From: an uncultured Clostridia bacterium
Lineage (GTDB): Bacteria; Bacillota; Clostridia; Oscillospirales; Oscillospiraceae
Assembly (NCBI GenBank): GCA_946187035.1
Contig: CAMHPQ010000003.1
Location: forward strand, 1,886 to 65,885
DNA: 64,000 bases
Reading direction: 5' to 3'
This document shows positions 14,479 to 34,683 of the stretch, in pieces (the first letter of the stretch is position 1; each line of letters opens with the position of its first letter). The translations under genes and the position numbers were made by a program. The notes beneath the pieces are model-generated. The model was not told where the DNA came from. It did no database searches and saw only the letters and a program-made list of their open reading frames with translations.

Positions 14479-17400
14479 TTACATCAGGTGCGCAACCATG
14501 ACAACAAAGATGTCATCGCTGTTGGTGATGTCGCGGATGAGCGTATAGCCCTCCTTGTCCTCCAGTTCATCGTTGTAATAGAGGGAGGTGGCCTCCAGCA
14601 TTTTGCCTCCGCCAAGGTAGATGCCCACATGGTGGATCTCATTGATCTCGTGGCAATCGCTGATGCCGCATTTTCCGTTGAGATAGAACACCGCGTCGCC
14701 CTTTTGCAGCGCGTCCACGCTGAAGTCCTTATCGACCGTGTTGTCGCTCATGAGCTTGGTGTACTGGCGGTTGACCGTCTCCGGAATGTCCACATCCACC
14801 GCCTGCATCACGGTATAAACCAGACTGCTGCAGACAAGCTGACCTTCGTTCTTGCCGTAGGGCGTTCCCAGCAGCTCCACGCCGCGGGCCATCAGTTTGG
14901 AGAACGGGTTCGACTCGTCCACAGTGACGGACACCTTTCCGGCGCTGTCCGCGTGGAAGCTGACGCCCTCCCAGATCCAGTCGTCGTTCTTGACCAGACC
15001 GCGCTCCAGGTCGAAGTTGAACAGATTGCCGTCCTTGTCGGAGTACAGCCCCAGCACCAGCTGGTTGTTCATCTCGGTGAAGAAATAGGTCTTTCCATCG
15101 AAGTCATGGTACCCCGCCGCGAGGCCGCCCTCGGGCAGATAGCCATACCACTTGCCGTTGAGCTCCACCAGGCCGGTGCGCATGGCGCCGGTCTTCGTGT
15201 CGAAGTAATAAGCCTTGTCGTCAATCGTCCGCGCGCCGTAGAGCAGATAGCCGCTGTTGGAGAAGCAGTAGGTGGAACCGTTGATTTCGCTCAGCCCGGT
15301 GCGCGTGCCGCTTTCGTCCACATAATAGGTGTAGTCGCCCACGGTCACAAAGCCGGTCCGGCGCACACCCTGAGCGTCAAAGTAATACCGTGTGCTGTCC
15401 AGCGTCAGCCAGCCGGTCTGGGCCGTGAAGACGTTGGGACGGAAGTAGTATTCCTTTCCGTCGATCTCCACAAATCCGGACTGCAGAACGCCGGTTTCGG
15501 GATCTGCGTAGACGGGCTTTTCTGTGGTCGTCACCAGGCCGGAGCAGCGACGCCCGGTCTCGAGATCGAAGTAGTACACGTTGTCGCCGATCTTCTGGAG
15601 TCCCTTGCGCATGACGCAGGAGTTATCGAAGTACCAGACGCCGTCCTCCAGCTCCAGGAGTCCGGTGGCGAGGCCGTTTTCCGTGTAATAGAACGTGTTG
15701 CCGTCCAGGGTGACAAAGCCCAGCTGCCGCTCGCCGGACTCGGGATCGTAGTACATTTTCACGCCGTTCTCGGTGACGCAGCCGGAATTCTTATTGGGGT
15801 TCTTCATGGCGCCGGAAGAGGTGAACGTGTAAGAGACGCCGTCGATCTCCCGGGTCTGGCCGCAGACCGCCTTGTAATCCTCGAAGTAATAGCGGATGCC
15901 GTTGATGGTTTTCCAGCCGTTGCAGGCCTGACCGGTGGTGGTGTCGAAGTAGTATTTGTCGCCGTCAATGGTCTGCAGACCCAGGTAAGCGTATCCGCTG
16001 CTGCTGAAATCATACAGCGCGCCGTCCATAAAGGTAAGTCCCGTCTGCACGCCGTTTTCCGTAAGGCCGTAGATCCGTCCGCCGTAACTGACCAGTCCGA
16101 ACACAGCCTCGCCGGTCTCCAGATCGAAGAAGTAGCGCGTGCCGTCCACGGTCAGCAGGCCGGTTTTGATGCTGCCGTCGCTGCGGAAGTTGTAGAGCTT
16201 GCCGTCGATCCAGGTCAGACCGTTGCCGGCGCCGTTGACGCCGTCGAAGTAGTAGCGGGTGCCGCCGGTCTCATAAAAGCCGGTGAACAGCTTGTAGGTC
16301 TCATCGTCGGCGCAGTAGCGCTTGCCGTCTGCGACGAAGGTGCCGCTGTAAAGGGTGCCGGTGTCGCGGGCATAGTATGCGCCGTCGTCCGTTTCAATCA
16401 GGCCGGTCAGCATCTTGCCGTCCTCGCCGAAGTAAAACACCTTGTCGTCCAGCCGGAGCATACCTGTCACCATGCGATAGGTCTCGCGGTCAAAGTAATA
16501 GGTGCTATCTCCCACGGTCTCAAAGCCGCCCTGAGAGAGGCCGGATTCCGCAGAGAAGTAATAGGTGACGCCGTCCACCGTCTTCAGGCCGGAGACGGGG
16601 TTGCCGGTGGTCTCGTCAAAGTACATGTAGTGGCCCGCGCCCACATCGATCAGACCGAAGCGCTGCAGGCCGGTGTTCCAGTCAAAGTAATACTTCTTGC
16701 CGTTGACGGTGCTGACGCCTCTGGCCATGGAGCCGCTGTCGTCGAAATAACGCGTGCCGTCCTCCATCCGCTGCCAGCCGGTGAGCTTCACGTTTCCGTC
16801 CACGATGTAGTAGGCCAGGCCGGTTTCCGGATCAATCACAATTGCGGACGAGCAGATCTGCGCGGAGCTGCTGGGCAGGCTGTTGCCCTGTCCGTCCGTG
16901 ACAATGCAGCGGAACCGCCGTCCCACAGTCGTGTCGTCCACGGTGCAGGAGATGGTCGCCTCCGTGCAGTCGGCGGGCGTCCAGGTAACGCCGTCATCCG
17001 CACTGTACTCCCAGCTGTAGCTCAGGTTCCAGCCCTCGGCCTTGACCGTGAACTCCACCGTGCTGCCGGAGCTGCCGTAGGCGTCCACCGGCTGCTTGAC
17101 AATCTTCAGCGGCGGCATCCAGATGACGCTGGCCGTATTGGAGATCGCAGTTTTCCCGTAACTGTCGGTGACGATGCAGCGGTACAGCCGTCCATTGGAG
17201 GTACGGTTGATGGTGCAGGTGGCGGTCTGCTTGGTGGCGGAGTTCACCCAGGTCTCGCCGCCGTCCTCGCTGTACTGCCACTGGTAGGTCAGACCAACGC
17301 CGTTGGCCGTCACCTTGAAGCTAGCAATATCGCCGGTTTCGCCCAGGGCGTCCTGGGGCTGGGTCAGAATCTGCAGATCGCTGAGGGTCACTTTCGTCAC

Positions 17401-20277
17401 CCGGGTGATCTTCTGCTCCCCGGTTCCGTCGGTAATGACGCAGCGGTACTGCCGCGCCGCGGCGGCCTCGTCCGCTTCAAAGGAGAACGTCTCGTCCGTG
17501 CAGCCGGTCTCGTTCCAGGCCTCGCCGCCGTCCTCGCTGTACTCCCAGCTGTAGCTCAGGTTCCAGCCCTCGGCCTGGACGGTGAACGTCACCTCGTCGC
17601 CGCTCAGGACGCTGACATCCGCAGGCTGCTTCACAATGGTGATGGGCGCGATCCACGTGATGGAAGCAGTGTCCGAAATCACCGTCTGTCCATATTTATC
17701 GGTGATGATGCAGCGGTACTGCCGTCCGTTGGAGGTACGGTTGATGGTGCAGGTGACGGAGGCCTTGGCCGCAGAGTCCGTCCAGGTCTCGCCGCCGTCG
17801 GTGCTGTACTGCCACTGATAGCTGAGGCCGTAGCCCTCTGCCGTGACGGTAAAGGTTGCAATGTCGCCGGTCTTGCCCATGGCGTCCTCCGGCTGAGAAG
17901 TAATGGAAAGATCCGTCAGGTACACCCTCACCGAGCGCGTCGTCTGCTGTTCACCGTCTCCGTTTGTGACGACGCAGCGGTACTGCCGCGCCGCAGCCGC
18001 ATCGTCCGCAGCGCAGTGAAATGTGGCGTTTGTGCCGGATGCGGGAAGCCAGGTCTCGCCGTTGTCCTCGCTGTATTCCCAATCGTAGCTCAGGTTCCAG
18101 CCCACTGCCTGGACGGTGAAGATCGCCTCGCCGCCTCTCTGGACATAGTCATCCGAGGGCTGCTTGACAATGCTGAGCGGACGCTGCCAGATGAGTCTGG
18201 CCTCCCTCGTCACCGCCTGCGCTCCGCTGCTGTCCGTGAGAACGCAGCGATACAGGCGTCCGTTGGAGGTGCCGTTGATTTTGCAGGAGATGCTGGTCTT
18301 GGTGCTGCTTGCGTCGACCCAGGTCTCACCCTCATCGTCGCTGTACTGCCACTGGTAGGTCAGGCCGGCGCCGGAGGCCGCGACTTTGAAGACGGCGTAT
18401 TCGTCCTTCTCTCCCAGGGCGTCCTGGGGCTGCTCCAGAATCCGGATACCGCTTTCCATCACCTTCGCAGATTTGCTGACAAAGACTGCGCCGGTCTCGT
18501 CCGTGATGACGCAGCGATACATACGTCCGTAGGTCGATTCGTCCACGCCGGTGGTGACGGTTGTCTGATTCCCGTCATCGGAAATCCAGACAGCGCCGTC
18601 GGCCTCTGTCCAGGTCTCGCCGCTGTCGGTGCTGGCCTGCCAGAGGTAAATGAGCTCCCAGTTTTCTGCTCCCTGCAGCTCCACAGAGAAGACCGCCTCA
18701 GCGCCAGCCGGAACATAAGCGTCCTCCGGCTGCCCGACAATGCTGATGGGCGCAATCCAGGTGAGGCTGGCCGCATCGGAAATCGCCTGCGTTCCATAGC
18801 TGTCCGTGATGACGCAGCGGTACAGCCGTCCGTTGGAGGTCTTGTTGATCTTGCAGGAGGTGCTGGTGCCCGTACTGCTGGCATTAATCCAGCTCTCGCC
18901 GTTGTCCGTGCTGTACTGCCACTGATAGGTCAGTCCCTCGCCGACGGCCTTGATTCTGAAGACTGCGGTATCGCCGCCCTTGCCCACCGCGTCCTGGGGC
19001 TGGGAGGTGATTTCAATGACGGACACAGGCTGCGTCACCGTGAGCGTCGCCGCCTTGGAGGTCTCCATCTCGCTGCCGGAGCTCACAACGCAGCGGTACT
19101 GGTAGCCGTTGCGGTTGGTGGCTCCGCTGATGCCCGCCACCGTCAGGGTGTCGGTATTGTAGCCCTGGGTGGCGCTGGAGCAGTTTTTCCAGTTTCCACC
19201 GGGCTTCTTATACTGCCACTGATAGCTGAGATCGCTGCCGCTCGCTTTCACAGTGAAAGAAACCTTGTTCTCTCCCTCCGCCCGGGCATCCTTAGGCTGG
19301 ACAGTGATCTCGACGGTCGGAGCAGGCACCGTAACCGTGAGGGTCGCTGCATCGGAAGCCAGGTTTTCGATTCCGGAGGTTATTACACAGCGGTACTGGT
19401 AACCGTTGCGGTTGGTGCTGCCGCTGATGCCGGCAACGGTCAGGGTGTCGGTGTTGTAGCCCTGGGTGGCGCTGGAGCAGTTTTTCCAGCTTCCACCGGG
19501 CTTCAGATACTGCCACTGATAGCTGAGGTCGTTTCCGCTCGCTTTCACAGTGAAAGAAACCTTGTTCGCGCCTACCGTCTGCGCGTCCTGCGGCTGCGAT
19601 GTAATCTCGATCACAGGCCCTGCAACCGTGAGCTTCGCCGCCTTGGAGGTCAGCTTCACGTCACCGGAAGTCACCACACAGCGGTAATGATAGCCGTCGC
19701 GGCTGGTCTTCCCGTTGATGCTCTCAACCGTGAGCGTGTCCGTATTATAGCCCTTCGTCGCGCTGGAACAGTTTTTCCAGCTGCCATTGGGTGTTCTGTA
19801 CTGCCACTGATAACTGAGATCGCTGCCCGTGGCGGCCACCCGGAATTCCGCAGTTTCGCCCGCATCCACGGTCGCACTCTCCGGCTGCGTCTTGATTGCA
19901 TACACTGTAAGCGTCGCAGCATTGGAGGTCAGCTTCGTGCTGCCGGAGGTGACGACGCAACGGTACTGATAGCCATCGCGGTTGGTGCCGTTGCTGATGC
20001 CCGCAACCGTCAGGGTATTGGTATTATACCCCTGCGTCGCGCTGGAACAGTTTTTCCAGCTGCCGGCAGGCGCTTTGTACTGCCAACGATAGGTCAGATT
20101 GCTGCCCGATGCGTCAACGGTGAAGTTGACGGTGCCCGTTCCAACGGTGGACGCGTCCATCGGCTGCTTTGTCAAAATCGCCGACGCCGCCTGTGCCGCC
20201 GTGATCGTGCCCAAAAGCAGCACTGCCGCCAGCAGCAGGACAAAAATGTGTTTCACAAAATGTCGTTTTCTGGTCAT
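14479..20277 (-). CDS. Giant (1932 aa) secreted cell-wall hydrolase: Ig-like repeat array + cell-wall-binding (CWB) repeats + C-terminal NlpC/P60 domain
   Basis: Signal peptide. About a dozen Ig-like modules (YQWQY...NCSSATQGYNTDTLTV...YRCVV). GW/YYF-type CWB repeats (TGWQRMEDGTRYFDDSG...). NlpC/P60 residues VCSSLVY and HHVGIYLGGGKMLEA. AGGAGG RBS. Confidence 0.9.
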   Translation of the reverse strand: MTRKRHFVKHIFVLLLAAVLLLGTITAAQAASAILTKQPMDASTVGTGTVNFTVDASGSNLTYRWQYKAPAGSWKNCSSATQGYNTNTLTVAGISNGTNRDGYQYRCVVTSGSTKLTSNAATLTVYAIKTQPESATVDAGETAEFRVAATGSDLSYQWQYRTPNGSWKNCSSATKGYNTDTLTVESINGKTSRDGYHYRCVVTSGDVKLTSKAAKLTVAGPVIEITSQPQDAQTVGANKVSFTVKASGNDLSYQWQYLKPGGSWKNCSSATQGYNTDTLTVAGISGSTNRNGYQYRCVITSGIENLASDAATLTVTVPAPTVEITVQPKDARAEGENKVSFTVKASGSDLSYQWQYKKPGGNWKNCSSATQGYNTDTLTVAGISGATNRNGYQYRCVVSSGSEMETSKAATLTVTQPVSVIEITSQPQDAVGKGGDTAVFRIKAVGEGLTYQWQYSTDNGESWINASSTGTSTSCKINKTSNGRLYRCVITDSYGTQAISDAASLTWIAPISIVGQPEDAYVPAGAEAVFSVELQGAENWELIYLWQASTDSGETWTEADGAVWISDDGNQTTVTTGVDESTYGRMYRCVITDETGAVFVSKSAKVMESGIRILEQPQDALGEKDEYAVFKVAASGAGLTYQWQYSDDEGETWVDASSTKTSISCKINGTSNGRLYRCVLTDSSGAQAVTREARLIWQRPLSIVKQPSDDYVQRGGEAIFTVQAVGWNLSYDWEYSEDNGETWLPASGTNATFHCAADDAAAARQYRCVVTNGDGEQQTTRSVRVYLTDLSITSQPEDAMGKTGDIATFTVTAEGYGLSYQWQYSTDGGETWTDSAAKASVTCTINRTSNGRQYRCIITDKYGQTVISDTASITWIAPITIVKQPADVSVLSGDEVTFTVQAEGWNLSYSWEYSEDGGEAWNETGCTDETFSFEADEAAAARQYRCVITDGTGEQKITRVTKVTLSDLQILTQPQDALGETGDIASFKVTANGVGLTYQWQYSEDGGETWVNSATKQTATCTINRTSNGRLYRCIVTDSYGKTAISNTASVIWMPPLKIVKQPVDAYGSSGSTVEFTVKAEGWNLSYSWEYSADDGVTWTPADCTEATISCTVDDTTVGRRFRCIVTDGQGNSLPSSSAQICSSAIVIDPETGLAYYIVDGNVKLTGWQRMEDGTRYFDDSGSMARGVSTVNGKKYYFDWNTGLQRFGLIDVGAGHYMYFDETTGNPVSGLKTVDGVTYYFSAESGLSQGGFETVGDSTYYFDRETYRMVTGMLRLDDKVFYFGEDGKMLTGLIETDDGAYYARDTGTLYSGTFVADGKRYCADDETYKLFTGFYETGGTRYYFDGVNGAGNGLTWIDGKLYNFRSDGSIKTGLLTVDGTRYFFDLETGEAVFGLVSYGGRIYGLTENGVQTGLTFMDGALYDFSSSGYAYLGLQTIDGDKYYFDTTTGQACNGWKTINGIRYYFEDYKAVCGQTREIDGVSYTFTSSGAMKNPNKNSGCVTENGVKMYYDPESGERQLGFVTLDGNTFYYTENGLATGLLELEDGVWYFDNSCVMRKGLQKIGDNVYYFDLETGRRCSGLVTTTEKPVYADPETGVLQSGFVEIDGKEYYFRPNVFTAQTGWLTLDSTRYYFDAQGVRRTGFVTVGDYTYYVDESGTRTGLSEINGSTYCFSNSGYLLYGARTIDDKAYYFDTKTGAMRTGLVELNGKWYGYLPEGGLAAGYHDFDGKTYFFTEMNNQLVLGLYSDKDGNLFNFDLERGLVKNDDWIWEGVSFHADSAGKVSVTVDESNPFSKLMARGVELLGTPYGKNEGQLVCSSLVYTVMQAVDVDIPETVNRQYTKLMSDNTVDKDFSVDALQKGDAVFYLNGKCGISDCHEINEIHHVGIYLGGGKMLEATSLYYNDELEDKEGYTLIRDITNSDDIFVVMVAHLM
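16830..20170 (-). repeat. Tandem Ig-like module-coding repeats within the 1932-aa gene
   Basis: Recurrent DNA strings such as CTGCCACTGATAGCTGAG near 17811, 18911, 19211, 19511 and 19801. Related modules recur in the gene at 26351-27190. Confidence 0.8.
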
Positions 20278-20493: not shown

Positions 20494-21489
20494 TCAGTTT
20501 TCCTTCTGGGGGTCGCTGTGCTGGACGGCTTCCAGCACCTCGTAGCGGTCCATCTGGAGACCCTTCTTCATCTGCAGCGCCTCTTCGATGGGGGTCCGGA
20601 CCAGGAAGCCGCCGCTGGTGCCGATGACGGTGTTGAAGTCGCCGTCCACCAGGGCCATGACCGCTGCGTAACCCATGCGGGTGGCGATCTCCCGGTCACG
20701 GACGCTGGGGGTGCCGCCGCGCTGGATGTGACCCAGGACGGTCACGCGGGGGTCGATGCCCAGGTTCTCCTTGATCTCGTCGCCGATGGTGAAAGCGCTG
20801 CCCACGCCCTCGGCCACCACCACCATGAAGTGGGTGTTGCCGGCCAGACGGGAGCGGCGGATGGGCTCCGCCACGTCGCGGTCGAAGTCATAGTCCCGCT
20901 CCGGCACCAGCACCGCGGTGGCGCCCACGGCGATGCCCACATACAGCGCCAGGAAGCCCGCGTGGCGGCCCATGACCTCCACCACGGAGCAGCGCTCGTG
21001 GGACTGCATGGTGTCGCGGAGCTTGTCGATGCACATGACGGCGGTGTTGCAGGCGGTGTCGAAGCCGATGGTGTAGTTGGAGCAGCCCAGGTCGTTGTCA
21101 ATGGTGGCGGGGACGCCCACCGTCGGGATGCCCAGGCGGCTGAGCTCCAGGGCGCCGCGGAAGGTGCCGTCGCCGCCGATGGCAATGACCGCGTCCAGAC
21201 CCAGGAGTCTGCAGGTGGCCACGGCCTTCTTGCGGCCTTCTTCATGCATGAATTCCTCGCAGCGGGCGGTGTAAAGAATGGTGCCGCCGGCGCTGAGGGT
21301 GTGGCTCACGTCTTTGGAGCTGAGCATCTCGAAGTCGCCGGTGATGAGACCCTGCCAGCCGCGGTGGATGCCCACCACGTCGATGCCCTGACCCAGAGCG
21401 GTGCGGACCACGGCGCGGACTGCGGCGTTCATGCCCGGGGCGTCCCCGCCGCTGGTGAGTACGCCGATGCGTTTGATTTTATGATCCAT
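20494..21489 (-). CDS. pfkA: ATP-dependent 6-phosphofructokinase
   Basis: Motifs IGVLTSGGDAPGMNAAVRAVV, IGGDGTFRGA, PATIDNDL and GHIQRGG. ATG 21489 lies 7 nt after GGAGGA. Confidence 0.9.
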   Translation of the reverse strand: MDHKIKRIGVLTSGGDAPGMNAAVRAVVRTALGQGIDVVGIHRGWQGLITGDFEMLSSKDVSHTLSAGGTILYTARCEEFMHEEGRKKAVATCRLLGLDAVIAIGGDGTFRGALELSRLGIPTVGVPATIDNDLGCSNYTIGFDTACNTAVMCIDKLRDTMQSHERCSVVEVMGRHAGFLALYVGIAVGATAVLVPERDYDFDRDVAEPIRRSRLAGNTHFMVVVAEGVGSAFTIGDEIKENLGIDPRVTVLGHIQRGGTPSVRDREIATRMGYAAVMALVDGDFNTVIGTSGGFLVRTPIEEALQMKKGLQMDRYEVLEAVQHSDPQKEN

Positions 21490-21618
21490 AGATGTATCCT
21501 CCATTTTCCTGTTCTGTTTCTACTTTATCTTGATTTCCCGACTATGTCAATCTTTTTTCAATCCAATCTCCCCGGTTTTCAACATCCCGGCCAAATATGA
21601 TGATTTTTTCCAAGACGG

Positions 21619-21647
21619 TTGACTTTTGGGAGCATCGTGCGTATAAT
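21619..21647 (+). promoter_or_regulatory. Sigma-70-type promoter of the metA leader
   Basis: TTGACT at 21619-21624, a 17-nt spacer, then TATAAT at 21642-21647. Confidence 0.65.
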
Positions 21648-21682
21648 GGGAACACATTCCAGAAGAAAGGAGCTCCCGGCTG

Positions 21683-21790
21683 ATGCTGTACGCCCGCTGC
21701 ATGATGAACAGCATGATGTACATGCCCATGTGCATGTGCATGATTCGGCGCGCAGAAAAATCCGGAGAGACCTTCCAGCGAATGTCCTAA
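21683..21790 (+). CDS. 35-codon Met/Cys-rich leader peptide ([35 protein letters not shown])
   Basis: AAGGAG RBS at 21667-21672 and ATG at 21683. Between codons 6 and 20 there are 8 in-frame ATG and 3 TGC codons. The ORF lies between the promoter and a terminator directly upstream of metA. It is below the ORF-track size cutoff. Confidence 0.6.
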
Positions 21791-21811
21791 ACGCTGTTCG
21801 ACTGTATGTTT

Positions 21812-21846
21812 ACGGAGATCTCCAACCGGAGGTCTCCGTTTTTTTA
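21812..21846 (+). terminator. Intrinsic terminator (attenuator) between the leader ORF and metA
   Basis: Arms ACGGAGATCTCC and GGAGGTCTCCGT with loop AACC form the hairpin, followed by TTTTTTT. It ends 24 nt before the metA ATG. Confidence 0.75.
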
Positions 21847-21869
21847 TTTGGGAAAGGAGTTTGAACATC

Positions 21870-22796
21870 ATGCCCATCATCATTCCTCCCAATCTGCCTG
21901 CAGCCAAGGCGCTGCAGCGGGAGAACATTTTCTACTACCACACGGCCCGCGCCGAGACCCAGGACATCCGGATGCTGCACATCCTGATCCTGAATCTCAT
22001 GCCCACCAAGATCGCCACCGAGACCCAGCTGGTTCGGCTGCTGGGAAATACCCCGATCCAGGTGCAGGCGGAGCTCATGGCCTTTGACAGTCATACATCG
22101 AAAAACACCTCTCAGGAGCACATGCTCGCCTTCTACACCACCTTCGAGTCCGTCAAGCACCGGAACTTCGACGGCCTGATCATCACCGGCGCCCCCATCG
22201 AGAATCTGACCTTCGAGCAGGCGGACTACTGGGAGGAGCTGTGTAAGATCATGGAGTGGAGCAAGTCCCACGTCCAGAGCACCCTGCACATCTGCTGGGG
22301 CGCTCAGGCGGGGCTGTATTACCACTACGGCATCAACAAAATCCGGCTGCCGGAAAAGCTCTTCGGCGTCTATGACCATCGCGTGACCCACAAGGGCTCC
22401 ATTCTCTTCCGGGGCTTCGACGACGTGTTCCATGTCCCCCACTCCCGGCACACCGCCACGCCCAGGGAGCCCATCGTTCAAGAGCCAAAGCTGAAAATTC
22501 TGGCCGAGAGCGACGTGGCGGGGGTCTACGCGGTCTCCACCGACGGCGGCAGACAGATCTTCATCACCGGCCACTCGGAGTACGACACCGACACCCTGGA
22601 GCAGGAGTATCTTCGGGATCTGAATGCCGGCAAGCCCATCCACGTGCCGGAGCACTACTACCCCAACGATGACCCCACCCAGCAGCCCAGAAACACCTGG
22701 CGCTCCAGCGCGAATCTGCTGTTCTCCAACTGGCTGAATTACTTCGTGTATCAGGAGTCGCCCTACGACATTTCCGCCATCGAGCCCATTGCTTAA
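21870..22796 (+). CDS. metA: Homoserine O-acyltransferase (MetA family)
   Basis: Sequence [21 protein letters not shown]...[26 protein letters not shown]...[21 protein letters not shown] before ATG 21870. Confidence 0.9.
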
Positions 22797-23042: not shown

Positions 23043-23657
23043 ATGAGCCTGCTGGAACAGAGTTTGTTTGAATATTCCCACCATCTTGCGGCCAAGGAGC
23101 CGGTGCCCGGCGGCGGTGGGGCGGCGGCCCTGATCGGCGCCCTGGCGGCGGCCCTCGGCAGCATGGCGGGGAACTATACCGTCGGGAAGAAGGCCTACGC
23201 CGCGCACGAAGCCGAGGTACAGGCCGCTGTCGAGGCCTGCGACGGGCTGCGGATGCGGCTACTGGCCCTGGTGGACGCCGACGCCCAGGCCTTCGAGCCC
23301 CTCTCCAGAGCCTACGCCCTGCCGAAGGATGACCCCGATACGGCTGCCGCTTTGGAGGCTGCCACCCGGAACGCGGTCCTGGCCCCCATGGGGATCGTCC
23401 AGTGCTGCACAGAACTGGCGACGCCGCTGGAAACTCTGCGGGCGCACGGCAGCAAAATCATGCAGTCGGACGTGGGCTGCGCGGCCTATGCTGCGACTGC
23501 GGCCATGGAGTGCGCGTATCTGAACGTGCTGGTGAATCTCCGCGCCCTGCCGGAGGGAAAGCAGCTGGACGAGCAGGTACGTCCCATGCTGGAGGCTGCC
23601 CTGCCGAAGCTGAGAAAAATCGCGGAGGACGTCAGAGCGAGCCTGGAGATTGGCTAA
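23043..23657 (+). CDS. Cyclodeaminase/cyclohydrolase family protein (FTCD C-terminal-like, methenyl-THF cyclohydrolase type)
   Basis: Sequence LAAKEPVPGGGGAAALIGALAAALGSMAGNYTVGKK...LAPMGIVQCC...NVLVNL. Confidence 0.75.
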   Translation: MSLLEQSLFEYSHHLAAKEPVPGGGGAAALIGALAAALGSMAGNYTVGKKAYAAHEAEVQAAVEACDGLRMRLLALVDADAQAFEPLSRAYALPKDDPDTAAALEAATRNAVLAPMGIVQCCTELATPLETLRAHGSKIMQSDVGCAAYAATAAMECAYLNVLVNLRALPEGKQLDEQVRPMLEAALPKLRKIAEDVRASLEIG

Positions 23658-23844: not shown

Positions 23845-23938
23845 GACAGAGTAGGATCAGCGCGTTAAGTGCTGCGGGATGGGAAGTTGCCCGCAGACGA
23901 AGCACTTCGGTGCGCGGTGCCGGTCCGCATCCGCTGCC
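23845..23938 (+). promoter_or_regulatory. THF (tetrahydrofolate) riboswitch
   Basis: AGAGTAG..GCGCGTTAAGTG..GATGGGA..ACGAAGC..GCGCGGTG..CGCATCCGCTGC matches the conserved folT-motif blocks in order. It sits directly upstream of folT. Confidence 0.9.
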
Positions 23939-23956
23939 ACCAAAAGAGGGTTCGCT

Positions 23957-23992
23957 CCTTTCGTGGCGAGGGTCACGAAAGGGGCCTTTTTT
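23957..23992 (+). terminator. Riboswitch expression-platform hairpin (terminator/RBS sequestor)
   Basis: CCTTTCGTG (23957-23965) pairs with CACGAAAGG (23974-23982), followed by GGCCTTTTTT immediately before ATG 23993. The 3' arm overlaps the purine-rich RBS. Confidence 0.5.
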
Positions 23993-24508
23993 ATGAAAAA
24001 ACCGATTTTTACAACCAAAATGCTGGCGGTCATGAGCCTGCTGGTGGCCATTGAGGTCATCATCGCAAGGTTCGGCACCATCCGGCCCACCAACAGTCTG
24101 AAGCTCAGTCTGGACTTCATTCCGGTGGTGATCTCCGCCATTCTCTTCGGGCCCATCCCCGCCATGATCATCAGCATTCTGGCGGACATTCTGGGGGCCT
24201 TTCTGTTCCCGGTGGGGCCCTTTTTCCCGGGCTTCACGGTGACGGCGGCCATGACCGGGCTGCTGTACGGCCTGCTGCTGTACAGGGATCAGAGCATGCC
24301 GCGGATCGTGCTGGCGGTGCTGCTGCAGCAGGGGATTTTGAGTCTGCTGCTGAACACCTTCTGGCTGAAGGTATTGTACGGTCTCCCCTACCTGCCCACG
24401 CTGGTGGGGCGACTGGTGCAGGCCGGGGTCATGGCGGCGCTGCAGATCGTGCTGATCCCGCTGCTGGCCAAGGCCGTCAACGACGTGGAAAAGAGGGCGA
24501 AGCTATGA
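23993..24508 (+). CDS. folT: Folate-family ECF transporter S component
   Basis: Sequence MKKPIFTTKMLAVMSLLVAIEVIIARF...LDFIPVVISAILFGP, multi-TM, immediately downstream of the THF riboswitch. Confidence 0.85.
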   Translation: MKKPIFTTKMLAVMSLLVAIEVIIARFGTIRPTNSLKLSLDFIPVVISAILFGPIPAMIISILADILGAFLFPVGPFFPGFTVTAAMTGLLYGLLLYRDQSMPRIVLAVLLQQGILSLLLNTFWLKVLYGLPYLPTLVGRLVQAGVMAALQIVLIPLLAKAVNDVEKRAKL

Positions 24509-26313
24509 CGGCTCTGGAGGCCATTGAATACATTGAGCACTACACCTGGAGCACCACCCGGCTGGGGCTCGGGCGGACAAAAGAACTGCTCAGTCGAATG
24601 GGCGATCCACAGAAGTCTTTAAAATTCGTCCATGTGGCCGGGAGCAACGGCAAGGGCAGCACCTGCGCCATGCTGGCCTCGGTGCTGCGCGCCGCCGGAT
24701 ACAAAACCGGGCTCTACACCAGCCCCTACATCCAGGATTTCTGCGAGCGGATGCAGGTGAGCGGCTTAAACATCCCCGGCGAGACCCTGGCGGAGATCAC
24801 GGATCGGGTGCGGGTGCAGGCGGATCAGATGGAGGATCATCCCAGCCAGTTTGAGCTGGTGACGGCCATCGCCATGGTCTACTTTCTGGAGGCAGGCTGC
24901 GACATTGTGGTTCTGGAAGTGGGTCTCGGCGGCGCGCTGGACTCCACCAACGCCATCGACGCCCCGGAGGCAGCCGTGATCACCAATCTGGCGCTGGAGC
25001 ACACGGAGTATCTGGGCCACACCTATCACGAGATCGCCTCCGCCAAGGCCGGTATCATCAAAACTGGCTGCAGCTGCGCGGCCTATCCCTGCGACCCCGA
25101 GGCCATGGAGACCGTGGCGGCAGTCTGCAAAGAAAAAGACGTCCCGCTCCGGTGGGCGGATTTCGGCCAGATCCAGCCGATCTCCGACAGCCTCCAGGGG
25201 CAGGAATTCACTTATCGAACTTGGAAAAACCTCCGCATTCCCCTGCTGGGGGCCCACCAGCTGAAAAACGCCGCCGTTGCGCTGGAGACCATCGATCTGC
25301 TCCGGGGCCGCGGCTGGGAGATCCCCGATGAGGCGGTGCGCAAGGGCCTGAAAAACGTAACCTGGCCCGCCCGGTTTGAGGTACTGCACCATCAGCCGCT
25401 GTTCCTCCTGGACGGCGGCCACAACAGCCAGTGCGCGCGGGCTCTGGCGGACTGCGTGAAACGGTATCTGCCCGGTGAAAAGATCACCTTCCTCATGGGC
25501 GTTCTGGCGGACAAGGACGCCGACGAGATGCTGCAGGCGGTGCTGCCCCTGGGAAAGCAGTTTTTCTGTCTGACGCCCAACAATCCCAGAGCCCTGACCG
25601 CCGATGCATTGGCGGAGAAGATCCGCGCCCTGGGCGGTGATGCTGTGGTCTGCGCATCTGCGGAGGACGGATTGAAGCGGGTTTTGCAAACCGGCGGCAC
25701 CGTGGTGGCCTTCGGCTCCCTGTATCTGGCGGGGGAGCTGCGGACACTGTTTCCGAAGGTGCTGAAGCAGGTGCAGCGGAGAAGCTGTCTCGACGCCCGA
25801 AAGGCCATTCCGGCACCGGAGCGGAGGGAGAACTCCCGCGCCATCTGCCAGAGGCTGCTGGAATCGGAGCAGTATCAAAAGGCAAATACGATTCTGGCAT
25901 ACAACGCCTTCGGGGCCGAGGCGGATCTAACCGATTTTCTCCAACAGGCGAAGCTGGACGGCAAGCGGGTCTGTCTCCCCTGCTGCGTCAGTGAAACCGA
26001 GATGGTCGCGCTGCTGCCGAAGGATGCAGAAAGCTTCCGAACAGGGGCCTTCGGCATTCTGGAGCCCATTCCGGAGCAGTCCGAGGTCATTCCGCCGGAG
26101 GAAATCGATCTGGTGGTCTGCCCCTGCGCGGGGTTTGACGAGCACCGAAATCGGATGGGCATGGGCGCGGGCTACTATGACCGCTATTTGCCCAAGTGCA
26201 ACAACGCCTCTGTCATCGCCGCCGCCTACGAGGCCCAGAAGCTCCCGGAGATCTGCACCGACAGGCACGATCGTTCCATGGACATGGTGATTACCGAACG
26301 CAAAACCTATTAA
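24505..26313 (+). CDS. folC: Folylpolyglutamate synthase (FolC) fused to 5-formyltetrahydrofolate cyclo-ligase (MTHFS)
   Basis: N-terminal Mur-ligase motifs (HVAGSNGKGST, GLGGALDSTN). The C-terminal ~190 aa carry MTHFS motifs (ILAYNAFGAEADL, GAFGILEP, PCAGFDEHRNRMGMGAGYYDRYL). The start overlaps the folT stop (ATGA). Confidence 0.85.
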   Translation: MTALEAIEYIEHYTWSTTRLGLGRTKELLSRMGDPQKSLKFVHVAGSNGKGSTCAMLASVLRAAGYKTGLYTSPYIQDFCERMQVSGLNIPGETLAEITDRVRVQADQMEDHPSQFELVTAIAMVYFLEAGCDIVVLEVGLGGALDSTNAIDAPEAAVITNLALEHTEYLGHTYHEIASAKAGIIKTGCSCAAYPCDPEAMETVAAVCKEKDVPLRWADFGQIQPISDSLQGQEFTYRTWKNLRIPLLGAHQLKNAAVALETIDLLRGRGWEIPDEAVRKGLKNVTWPARFEVLHHQPLFLLDGGHNSQCARALADCVKRYLPGEKITFLMGVLADKDADEMLQAVLPLGKQFFCLTPNNPRALTADALAEKIRALGGDAVVCASAEDGLKRVLQTGGTVVAFGSLYLAGELRTLFPKVLKQVQRRSCLDARKAIPAPERRENSRAICQRLLESEQYQKANTILAYNAFGAEADLTDFLQQAKLDGKRVCLPCCVSETEMVALLPKDAESFRTGAFGILEPIPEQSEVIPPEEIDLVVCPCAGFDEHRNRMGMGAGYYDRYLPKCNNASVIAAAYEAQKLPEICTDRHDRSMDMVITERKTY

Positions 26314-34317: not shown

Positions 34318-34683
34318 GGGGATGTACCGGTTTCGACGGGGGTGTGGAGGCAGGAATAGCGGGCGGCGGCGCCTGACCGCCATAAAACGGGCACCTTATA
34401 AATTAAAGAACAACAACGATACTGTTCTTCTCGCTGCTTAATTAGCGAGCGTTCCCTCCGGGAGGCCCACGGCCCGGATGCGGAGCGTCGATGAGTGGGG
34501 AACGTGCGTGCGGTAAGCTTTGCCCGCACCACGCATCATGAAGCTACCGGACTTGCAGGCTTGCGTGTTGGCCTGCAACGAAGGGAACAGACCGGTTTGG
34601 CCGGTCACAACAACCCGCTGCGCCCGGAGAAGTTCTTGTTAAAGCGCTTTCGGACGGGGGTTCAACTCCCCCCATCTCCACCA
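34318..34683 (+). ncRNA. ssrA: tmRNA (SsrA)
   Basis: The 5' GGGGATGTACCGGTTTCGACGGGGG and 3' GGACGGGGGTTCAACTCCCCCCATCTCCACCA form the tRNA-like domain. The internal tag frame AAG AAC AAC AAC GAT ACT GTT CTT CTC GCT GCT TAA encodes KNNNDTVLLAA. smpB lies about 1.2 kb upstream. Confidence 0.95.

Follow-up and report, generated by a model that had tools for sequence, protein, structure and literature searches.

The present study examined a 64,000-nucleotide stretch of DNA (hereafter, the window) from an uncultured Clostridia bacterium of the Oscillospiraceae (GenBank assembly GCA_946187035.1, contig CAMHPQ010000003.1). The 5' leader of metA, which encodes a homoserine O-acyltransferase, contains in this window a short open reading frame (ORF) rich in methionine (Met) codons, followed by an intrinsic terminator. 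We conclude that this element is probably a methionine-specific ribosome-mediated transcription attenuator that controls metA. As judged from sequence comparisons, it very likely represents a new and widespread family of leader-peptide attenuators, a type of system that is already known. The original prediction, made from the letters of the window, had described a promoter, a Shine-Dalgarno (SD) sequence, a 35-codon ORF with a Met/Cys run, a terminator, and metA in this order, and had read them as a leader-peptide attenuator without S-box or T-box features. The order of elements was confirmed, and three results support the attenuator reading: riboswitch and T-box models did not match the leader, the mini-ORF was conserved upstream of orthologous metA genes, and related leaders preceded other methionine genes. 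Ribosome stalling at the Met codons and the direction of the response are what we infer from this anatomy.

The leader region of metA

The features of the leader region are as follows (coordinates in the window, strand, and description).

21619..21647, +: promoter, TTGACT (21619-21624), 17-nt spacer, TATAAT (21642-21647); sigma-70-type, 11/12 match
21667..21672, +: SD of the leader ORF, AAGGAG; 10 nt to its ATG (21683)
21667..21694, +: segment 1, 5' strand of a long hairpin (SD, spacer, AUG, and codons 2-4); from folding and the 21-lineage test
21683..21790, +: leader ORF, 35 codons plus TAA; read from the sequence, with in-frame indels among relatives
21701..21742, +: putative regulatory Met run, codons 7-20; 8 ATG interleaved with TGC, TAC, CCC, AAC, and AGC
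21716..21741, +: hairpin H1 in the Met run (AUGUACAUGC / GCAUGUGCAU), apex of the leader hairpin; RNAalifold consensus of 19 leaders
21747..21776, +: segment 2, 3' strand of the long hairpin (GGCG, GCAG, CCGG, GAG, and CCUU); from folding and the 21-lineage test
21762-21776, +: CCGGAGAGACCTTCC, candidate antiterminator strand within segment 2; GGAGA (21764-68) can pair with UCUCC (21819-23)
21776..21796, +: small hairpin CAGCG/CGCUG over the leader stop codon; from folding, with analogous small hairpins after the stop in other lineages
21812..21846, +: intrinsic terminator ACGGAGAUCUCC-AACC-GGAGGUCUCCGU plus U7 (segments 3 and 4); compensatory changes across the family
21851-21859, +: SD sequence of metA, GGAAAGGAG, ahead of the metA ATG at 21870
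21870..22796, +: metA, homoserine O-acyltransferase; Pfam HTS match, E 1e-135
Helices of the long hairpin: 21667-70:21771-74; 21673-75:21767-69; 21676-79:21762-65; 21686-89:21752-55; 21691-94:21747-50

A promoter scan of the + strand between 21300 and 23200 found a single promoter-like site ahead of metA, the TTGACT-17-TATAAT site, from which transcription presumably starts at approximately 21654. The gene upstream of the leader, the phosphofructokinase gene pfkA, is divergent. Since pfkA is divergent and no other promoter-like site was present, we regard the leader promoter as the sole source of metA transcripts. The terminator has a 12-bp stem (21812-21823/21828-21839), the loop AACC, and a run of seven T residues (21840-21846), with a folding energy of -21 kcal/mol. 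The last T of this run lies 24 nt before the metA ATG. Because the terminator ends this close to metA and pfkA is divergent, the expression of metA appears to need conditional read-through.

Direct reading of the leader ORF gave 8 ATG and 3 TGC codons within codons 6-20. A degenerate pattern of the Met run had no second match in the 64-kb window, and no match was obtained in 100 dinucleotide shuffles even when 3 mismatches were allowed. Other short ORFs with at least 5 ATG in 14 codons were absent from the window, except for mirror frames and one off-frame intragenic stretch. Two alternative coding interpretations of the leader were rejected. A His-rich alternative frame lacked an SD and a start, and the downstream genes are all methionine genes. 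Met/His-rich ORFs of the MHMHMGMY type on the minus strand (21542-21928 and 21547-21741) are mirror products of the palindromic CATG and had no SD or conserved start.

In Firmicutes, the textbook regulators of methionine genes are S-boxes and T-boxes. In searches with Rfam models, the region 21450-21950 gave no match at the gathering threshold, including the S-adenosylmethionine (SAM) and T-box (RF00230) models, and only noise at E<=10 (small nucleolar RNA and microRNA families, E>=0.03). The leader of locus L017, which precedes another methionine gene, likewise had no match to Rfam covariance models. As a positive control, RF00230 picked up a T-box upstream of metA in locus L026. The metA of L026 (68% identity) has this T-box leader (2664-2907) at the position equivalent to that of the Met leader, which is an example of an exchange of sensing systems. 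A different riboswitch was observed in locus L009, in which an azaaromatic (yjdF) riboswitch (1882-2010) lies approximately 1 kb upstream of metA; the mini-ORF at this locus is doubtful and Met-poor.

Conservation and distribution of the leader family

With the MetA protein as the query, 80 loci were retrieved from species-representative genomes. In the 8 closest (MetA 83-98% identical), which are rumen or gut metagenome-assembled genomes (MAGs) labelled Ruminococcaceae, Oscillospiraceae, or Clostridia, the Met-rich mini-ORF was present at the same place in 8/8. In total, the mini-ORF was present upstream of metA in 11 related loci; in L001-L008, L211, and L215 (MetA 83-98% identical), it was retained with its SD, start, frame, Met run, and terminator, while the flanks diverged. 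In an alignment of metA leaders (A1), the -35 and -10 hexamers were conserved, the spacing to the start codon (ATG or GTG) was fixed, and the stop codon was at approximately the same position. AGGAG was invariant in 9 metA leaders, the differences in ORF length were multiples of three, and the terminator arms varied by lineage yet remained complementary. At the more distant of the 80 metA loci, the element was not found directly upstream of metA.

The leader was not confined to metA. When metagenomes were scanned with a DNA pattern, most of the matches were eukaryote-like (MS/MP)n microsatellites, and these were removed by ORF length and context. The filtered scan revealed homologous leaders, each with a promoter, SD, ORF, and terminator, ahead of genes other than metA. 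Pfam annotation of the downstream genes identified metQ-metN-metI and metN-metI-metQ operons, and more divergent Met-run leaders preceded metY-type or other Cys/Met pyridoxal phosphate (PLP) enzyme genes (L017, L018, L037, L029, and L044). The leaders thus precede five kinds of methionine genes, metA included. Methionine is the only feature common to the genes behind homologous leaders, and this linkage supports a methionine attenuator.

Peptide searches indicated the size of the family. At 90% identity, a first profile search gave 209 clusters and a second profile, built from divergent members, gave 204, while an exhaustive search of 1.84 billion representatives gave 29 clusters at 50% identity. 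Nearly all of the leader peptides in these clusters are 32-41 amino acids long, and any source name that they carry is "hypothetical protein". One peptide variant occurred on at least 1000 contigs. In 12 look-ups of exact peptide sequences, the leader was directly upstream of a methionine gene in 10; of the remaining two, the downstream gene of L219 was truncated and unannotated, and the window's own peptide matched no contig.

A GGAG or GGAGG sequence was present in all of the leaders examined (33/33), and a strong terminator followed 12-43 nt past the leader stop in each of these 33. The distance from the run to the stop was 13-17 codons in most leaders. The M, P, and C columns of the Met run were invariant or nearly so across the family, and the peptide core M-C/Y-M-P-M-C/G-M-C was nearly invariant, with free N- and C-terminal parts. 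Peptide variants gained or lost whole ATG codons, from MMM to MMMMMM. Such variation in the number of in-frame ATG codons is expected of a codon run rather than of an aptamer. Among human-gut metQ leaders, P0078, P0012, P0023, and P0084 differ from each other by whole ATG codons (MMM to MMMMMM), which suggests slippage-like expansion and contraction of a regulatory run.

The distribution also bears on the possibility that the product is a functional small Met/Cys-rich peptide (metal-binding, redox, or a reserve of sulfur amino acids) that is co-transcribed with met genes, with the terminator fixing the ratio of short to long transcripts. Gene callers predict this peptide as a protein in hundreds of assemblies, and Met/Cys-rich motifs are able to bind Cu(I). 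However, the ORF is always located in a 5' leader between a promoter and a terminator, before the five kinds of methionine genes, and has no signal peptide, partner genes, or Pfam match. Moreover, its tail is unconstrained as protein and covaries as RNA with the SD-spacer of the same leader (see below). We consider this explanation highly improbable.

Two other observations were made on leaders of the family. In L114 (approximately 1860-2300), a group-A leader of the same type as the metQ leaders precedes a gene for another substrate-binding lipoprotein (MKKKVVAMFLAAVMAF..., Leu/Ile/Val-binding-like); either a rearrangement has occurred here or the regulon has an additional member. Furthermore, metY and metQ leaders contain a second small ORF with a good SD directly after the first terminator (L017, approximately 1300-1360; L018; L037, approximately 1440-1500; L084, approximately 1760-1830; and also L089, L151, and L165). 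Examples of the encoded peptides are MQNYFEALVRANFRNGRM, MQIRWSRIVRRNFRNGRM, and MKKLYRLYTTGWRMCPPGTDR, each ending at a stop codon. The nucleotide motif CGAATGTG recurs in all of these second ORFs and is read in one and the same frame (R-M and then a stop or Cys); 0.011 occurrences of it are expected per 500 nt. They are followed by an A/C-rich spacer, and a second terminator was not evident there. The leader of the window ends in the similar CAGCGAATGTCCTAA. The second small ORF and CGAATGTG may be a second layer of control.

Structure of the leader RNA and the proposed mechanism

The leader RNA (21650-21850) folded to -74 kcal/mol, compared with -52.6 kcal/mol for shuffled sequences (z -4.9). 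RNAalifold on MAFFT alignments (A1 and A2) recovered only H1 and the terminator. The long helix was missed because its pairing register shifts between lineages, and cognate and non-cognate duplexes were therefore compared. In this derangement permutation, RNAduplex energies of cognate segment pairs were compared with those of cross-lineage pairs in 21 lineages. Pairing was specific between the spacer/AUG region and the distal part of the post-run region (z -5.4, p<3e-5), and between codons 2-6 and its proximal part (z -5.9, p<3e-5). The two arms of the terminator, as a positive control, gave z -18.6, and five negative-control segment pairs were flat (p 0.49-0.98). The result for the long hairpin was unchanged in 12-lineage versions of the test. 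Compensatory changes in the helix between segments 1 and 2 were found in L211, L002, and L215; for example, the window spacer CUCCCGG pairs with CCGG.AG, and the L211 spacer UUUCAUCG pairs with CGGUGAGA.

The variation in H1 was wholly compatible with wobble pairing: a change from TGC to TAC replaces G-U with A-U, and a change from TGC to GGT replaces G-C with G-U. This pairing accounts for the constraint on the codons between the Met codons.

The original prediction had suggested that CCGGAGAGACC (21762-21772), which resembles the 5' arm of the terminator, could take part in alternative pairing. This sequence proved to be the 3' strand of the covarying helix that sequesters the SD region of the leader itself, and it is also a candidate partner of the terminator 5' arm. 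In the derangement test, the post-run region alone among the upstream segments matched the terminator 5' arm in a cognate-specific manner (z -2.4, p 0.011); its two halves gave p 0.017 and 0.044. The region from the stop to the terminator, the Met run, and the SD/NT segment gave no signal with the 5' arm. A duplex between CCGGAGAGACC and the terminator 3' arm was rejected; 11 bp are possible, but the product is still a hairpin beside the U tract. The region upstream of the terminator had no cognate signal with the 3' arm (p 0.65).

Masking the initiation region together with the run made sequestration of the terminator 5' arm stronger in 22/23 leaders (mean -5.7 kcal/mol unmasked and -8.8 kcal/mol masked). 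In the window, this mask yielded a -15 kcal/mol structure that occupies 21811-21823, in which GGAGA (21764-68) pairs with UCUCC (21819-23) and CUGUA (21802-06) with UACGG (21811-15). Modelling with ribosome occupancy, which had been proposed as a check, thus gave a divided answer. The mask that corresponds to a queue of ribosomes favoured sequestration of the 5' arm, whereas a single ribosome, either stalled or at the stop codon, made no difference. Equilibrium pairing probabilities of the 5' arm under the ribosome masks did not separate the states, and the free-energy version separated only the queue.

We propose the following mechanism, in which segment 1 is the initiation region with the first codons, segment 2 is the post-run region, and segments 3 and 4 are the terminator arms. 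Transcription would start at the single promoter, and each transcript would meet the strong terminator 24 nt before metA. A ribosome would load at the leader SD and translate the 35-codon ORF. When Met-tRNA(Met) is plentiful, it would pass the 8 Met codons, proceed to the stop, and cover or release the 3' part of the ORF. At the stop, it would cover approximately -18 to +11 around the stop codon, including the distal part of segment 2. After its release, segment 1 (SD, spacer, AUG, and codons 2-6) and segment 2 would re-anneal, the terminator would form, and metA would be off. When charged tRNA(Met) is scarce, ribosomes would stall and queue on the Met run, which forms the hairpin apex, and keep the strands of the hairpin apart. 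The 14-codon run exceeds the footprint of one ribosome and begins 5-8 codons past the start, so a queue could reach the initiation region. The freed 3' strand (21747-21776) would then pair with the terminator 5' arm, resulting in read-through and the production of MetA.

Several points weigh against this mechanism. The signal between the post-run region and the 5' arm is modest and depends on the representatives chosen (p 0.013 or 0.21 with 12 lineages, and 0.011 with 21), and these p values are uncorrected for the many segment pairs screened. In the window, the duplex between segment 2 and the terminator 5' arm is -9.4 kcal/mol, compared with -21 kcal/mol for the terminator. It was no better than shuffled sequences (z -0.55, p 0.24) and worse than the average non-cognate pairing, in keeping with the failure of the original prediction to find a convincing antiterminator by eye. 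The shuffle test of antiterminator strength, in which the duplex of the post-run region with the 5' arm did not exceed dinucleotide shuffles (mean z +0.12), was set aside, since the pyrimidine/purine bias common to both renders it uninformative. In equilibrium modelling, neither one stalled ribosome nor one located at the stop changed the availability of the 5' arm; the model thus has to invoke queuing of ribosomes or steric effects. Counting of Met codons leaves the strict conservation of TGC/TAC/CCC/GGT and the run-to-stop distance unexplained. Starvation for Met would also lower the charging of initiator tRNA, which could reduce translation of the leader. The carriers are mostly uncultured MAGs, and the case is built on sequence and modelling. 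We regard the leader-peptide principle as well supported; the pairing of segment 2 with the 5' arm, weak as it is in the window, is a candidate antiterminator.

The structure also raises the question of whether the sensor is translation at all. The long hairpin with H1 may be bound by a metabolite (SAM or Met) or a protein and stabilized as an anti-antiterminator, similar to P1 of the S-box, with the ORF being secondary. The best-supported structure is indeed a P1-like closing helix whose 3' strand is able to pair with the terminator 5' arm, the layout of an OFF-riboswitch. Constraint on the codons between the Mets acts at the nucleotide level, as TGC and TAC keep G-U or A-U in H1, and one modelled ribosome does not flip the structure. 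However, no Rfam family matched even at E<=10, and 33/33 leaders kept the SD, a start codon at constant spacing, an uninterrupted frame, and the position of the stop. The 3-nt periodicity of ATG has no rationale in RNA alone. Furthermore, ATG codons are gained and lost in frame and non-Met codons are freely replaced (MMNSMM, MMMMRM, MMMEM, and MMMDMMM), which would be incompatible with an aptamer core. An RNA switch of this type is unlikely.

The near-invariant core may instead point to sensing by the nascent peptide. Arrest peptides such as TnaC, SpeFL, and plant CGS1 are precedents, and M-C/Y-M-P-M-C/G-M-C in the exit tunnel, possibly with free Met or SAM, may arrest the ribosome, so that arrest rather than tRNA starvation sets the level of read-through. 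The core is conserved far beyond the needs of a codon counter, particularly in its P and C columns, and the distance to the stop is 13-17 codons in most lineages. However, H1 explains the conservation of the core equally well, as the Y/C and G/C replacements keep its pairing, and the residues beside the stop vary from lineage to lineage. The known ligand-sensing kind controls Rho-dependent termination or translation, whereas a strong intrinsic terminator is present here in every lineage. Moreover, if Met or SAM were the ligand, arrest at a high level of it would have to yield termination, for which the anatomy offers no route. We regard nascent-peptide sensing as very unlikely.

A broader idea arises from the near-invariant core, the fixed run-to-stop distance, and the hairpin that sequesters its own SD. 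The leader may be a single-round device that goes beyond Met counting, in which the nascent peptide (perhaps with free Met or SAM, as for CGS1 and TnaC) or the joint charging of Met and Cys tRNAs sets the dwell time. Its copies before metA, metY, and metNIQ would then form a "Met ribulon" in the dominant gut Oscillospiraceae. This idea is speculative, and we consider it quite unlikely to be correct. The preferred reading remains a ribosome-mediated attenuator that senses the supply of charged tRNA(Met).

Relationship to known systems and biological meaning

The proposed attenuator resembles the enterobacterial trpL, hisL, pheL, thrL, leuL, and ilvL leaders in its promoter, SD, ORF containing codons for the end product, and terminator before the first structural gene. 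It also shares with trpL-type attenuators the competing 1:2, 2:3, and 3:4 pairings (2:3 being a candidate here) and a terminator that is much more stable than the antiterminator. However, there is no sequence or Rfam relationship to these leaders, the amino acid predicted to be sensed is methionine, and the host belongs to the Firmicutes (Oscillospiraceae/Ruminococcaceae group). The arrangement of the hairpin also differs. The run is located at the apex of the 1:2 hairpin and not in its 5' strand, and segment 1 consists of the leader's own SD, spacer, AUG, and first codons; the folded leader is thus predicted to shut off its own translation.

The original prediction knew of no described Met leader-peptide attenuator. 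A full-text literature search found no Met leader peptide in Firmicutes, and to that extent the statement holds; it does not hold for other bacteria. MetL, a peptide of 20 amino acids with 3 Met codons, was predicted upstream of metBA in Campylobacter jejuni (PMC3847290). It is translated according to Ribo-seq, and a Met-rich small ORF (sORF) also precedes a D-methionine transporter gene (bioRxiv 10.1101/2022.11.09.515450). In Streptomyces lividans, metL was predicted upstream of metNIQ, with no clear terminator (PMC8079986). In the C. jejuni and S. lividans elements as in the present family, the leader of a methionine synthesis or import operon contains a short ORF that includes Met codons (both Met and Cys codons in Streptomyces), and ribosome stalling is the proposed principle. 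They differ in that both MetL peptides have 2-3 internal Met codons and the present family 8-10, and the comparative support appears far stronger for the latter. The available text of PMC3847290 and PMC8079986 reports no test of the response to methionine for either MetL. BLASTP of the present peptides against the S. lividans MetL peptide gave no alignment. Because Met leader peptides were predicted in C. jejuni and S. lividans, the novelty is narrower than initially assumed.

The nearest validated analogue is the "Cys ribulon" of mycobacteria, in which experimentally validated polycysteine leaderless sORFs act on translation (bioRxiv 10.1101/834739). In both systems, sORFs for a sulfur amino acid stand before several operons of one pathway and provide regulon-like coordination via ribosome pausing. 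In contrast, the sORFs of mycobacteria are leaderless and act by opening an RNA duplex in which a downstream ribosome-binding site is hidden, whereas the present ORF is led by an SD and followed by an intrinsic terminator, its codons are mainly Met, and control is presumably transcriptional. A precedent in Firmicutes is provided by His leader peptides upstream of hisS/hisZ in bacilli, which can replace T-boxes (PMC2965389); these differ from the present leaders in amino acid, genes, and clade and show no homology. Comparative studies on Actinobacteria reported no RNA element for methionine operons (PMC1262725). The leader family occupies the same niche as S-box (SAM-I) riboswitches and Met T-boxes, namely, premature termination in the metA, metY, and metNIQ leaders of Firmicutes. 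However, the proposed sensor is a codon-reading ribosome, not an aptamer or a tRNA-binding RNA.

Other features were noted in the window. An FTCD_C cyclodeaminase gene (23043-23657) lies directly downstream of metA. It is followed by a tetrahydrofolate (THF) riboswitch (23845-23938; Rfam RF01831, 81.7 bits) upstream of a membrane-protein ORF (23879-24508) and a folC-like ORF (24505-26313). The riboswitch, the membrane-protein ORF, the folC-like ORF, and the FTCD_C gene make up a one-carbon/folate cluster adjoining metA. A tmRNA gene is located at 34318-34683 (RF00023, 147.5 bits); this gene and the THF riboswitch were the only Rfam matches in the window. On the minus strand, an ORF of 1932 amino acids (14479-20277) contains many tandem repeats of approximately 90 amino acids ("YQWQY...GYNTDTLTV") followed by cell-wall-binding-like repeats, and probably encodes a large surface protein.

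The principle of this attenuator is unlikely to astonish specialists; however, the family is abundant and fills a gap in our picture of how methionine genes are controlled in gut Clostridia. It has escaped current annotation, as it is outside Rfam and its peptides are called "hypothetical protein". The covarying hairpin over the leader's own SD is a notable feature of its design. The family provides a clean test case for whether Met codons, which are also used for initiation, may serve as sensors in an attenuator, and it may be useful as a compact Met-responsive part for engineering. It would also enable the prediction of regulons for methionine uptake and synthesis in uncultured gut bacteria. 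For the methionine genes of Firmicutes, the leader would represent a third solution, read by the ribosome, which is found upstream of met genes on many gut and rumen contigs and in rumen MAGs labelled Oscillospiraceae or Ruminococcaceae.

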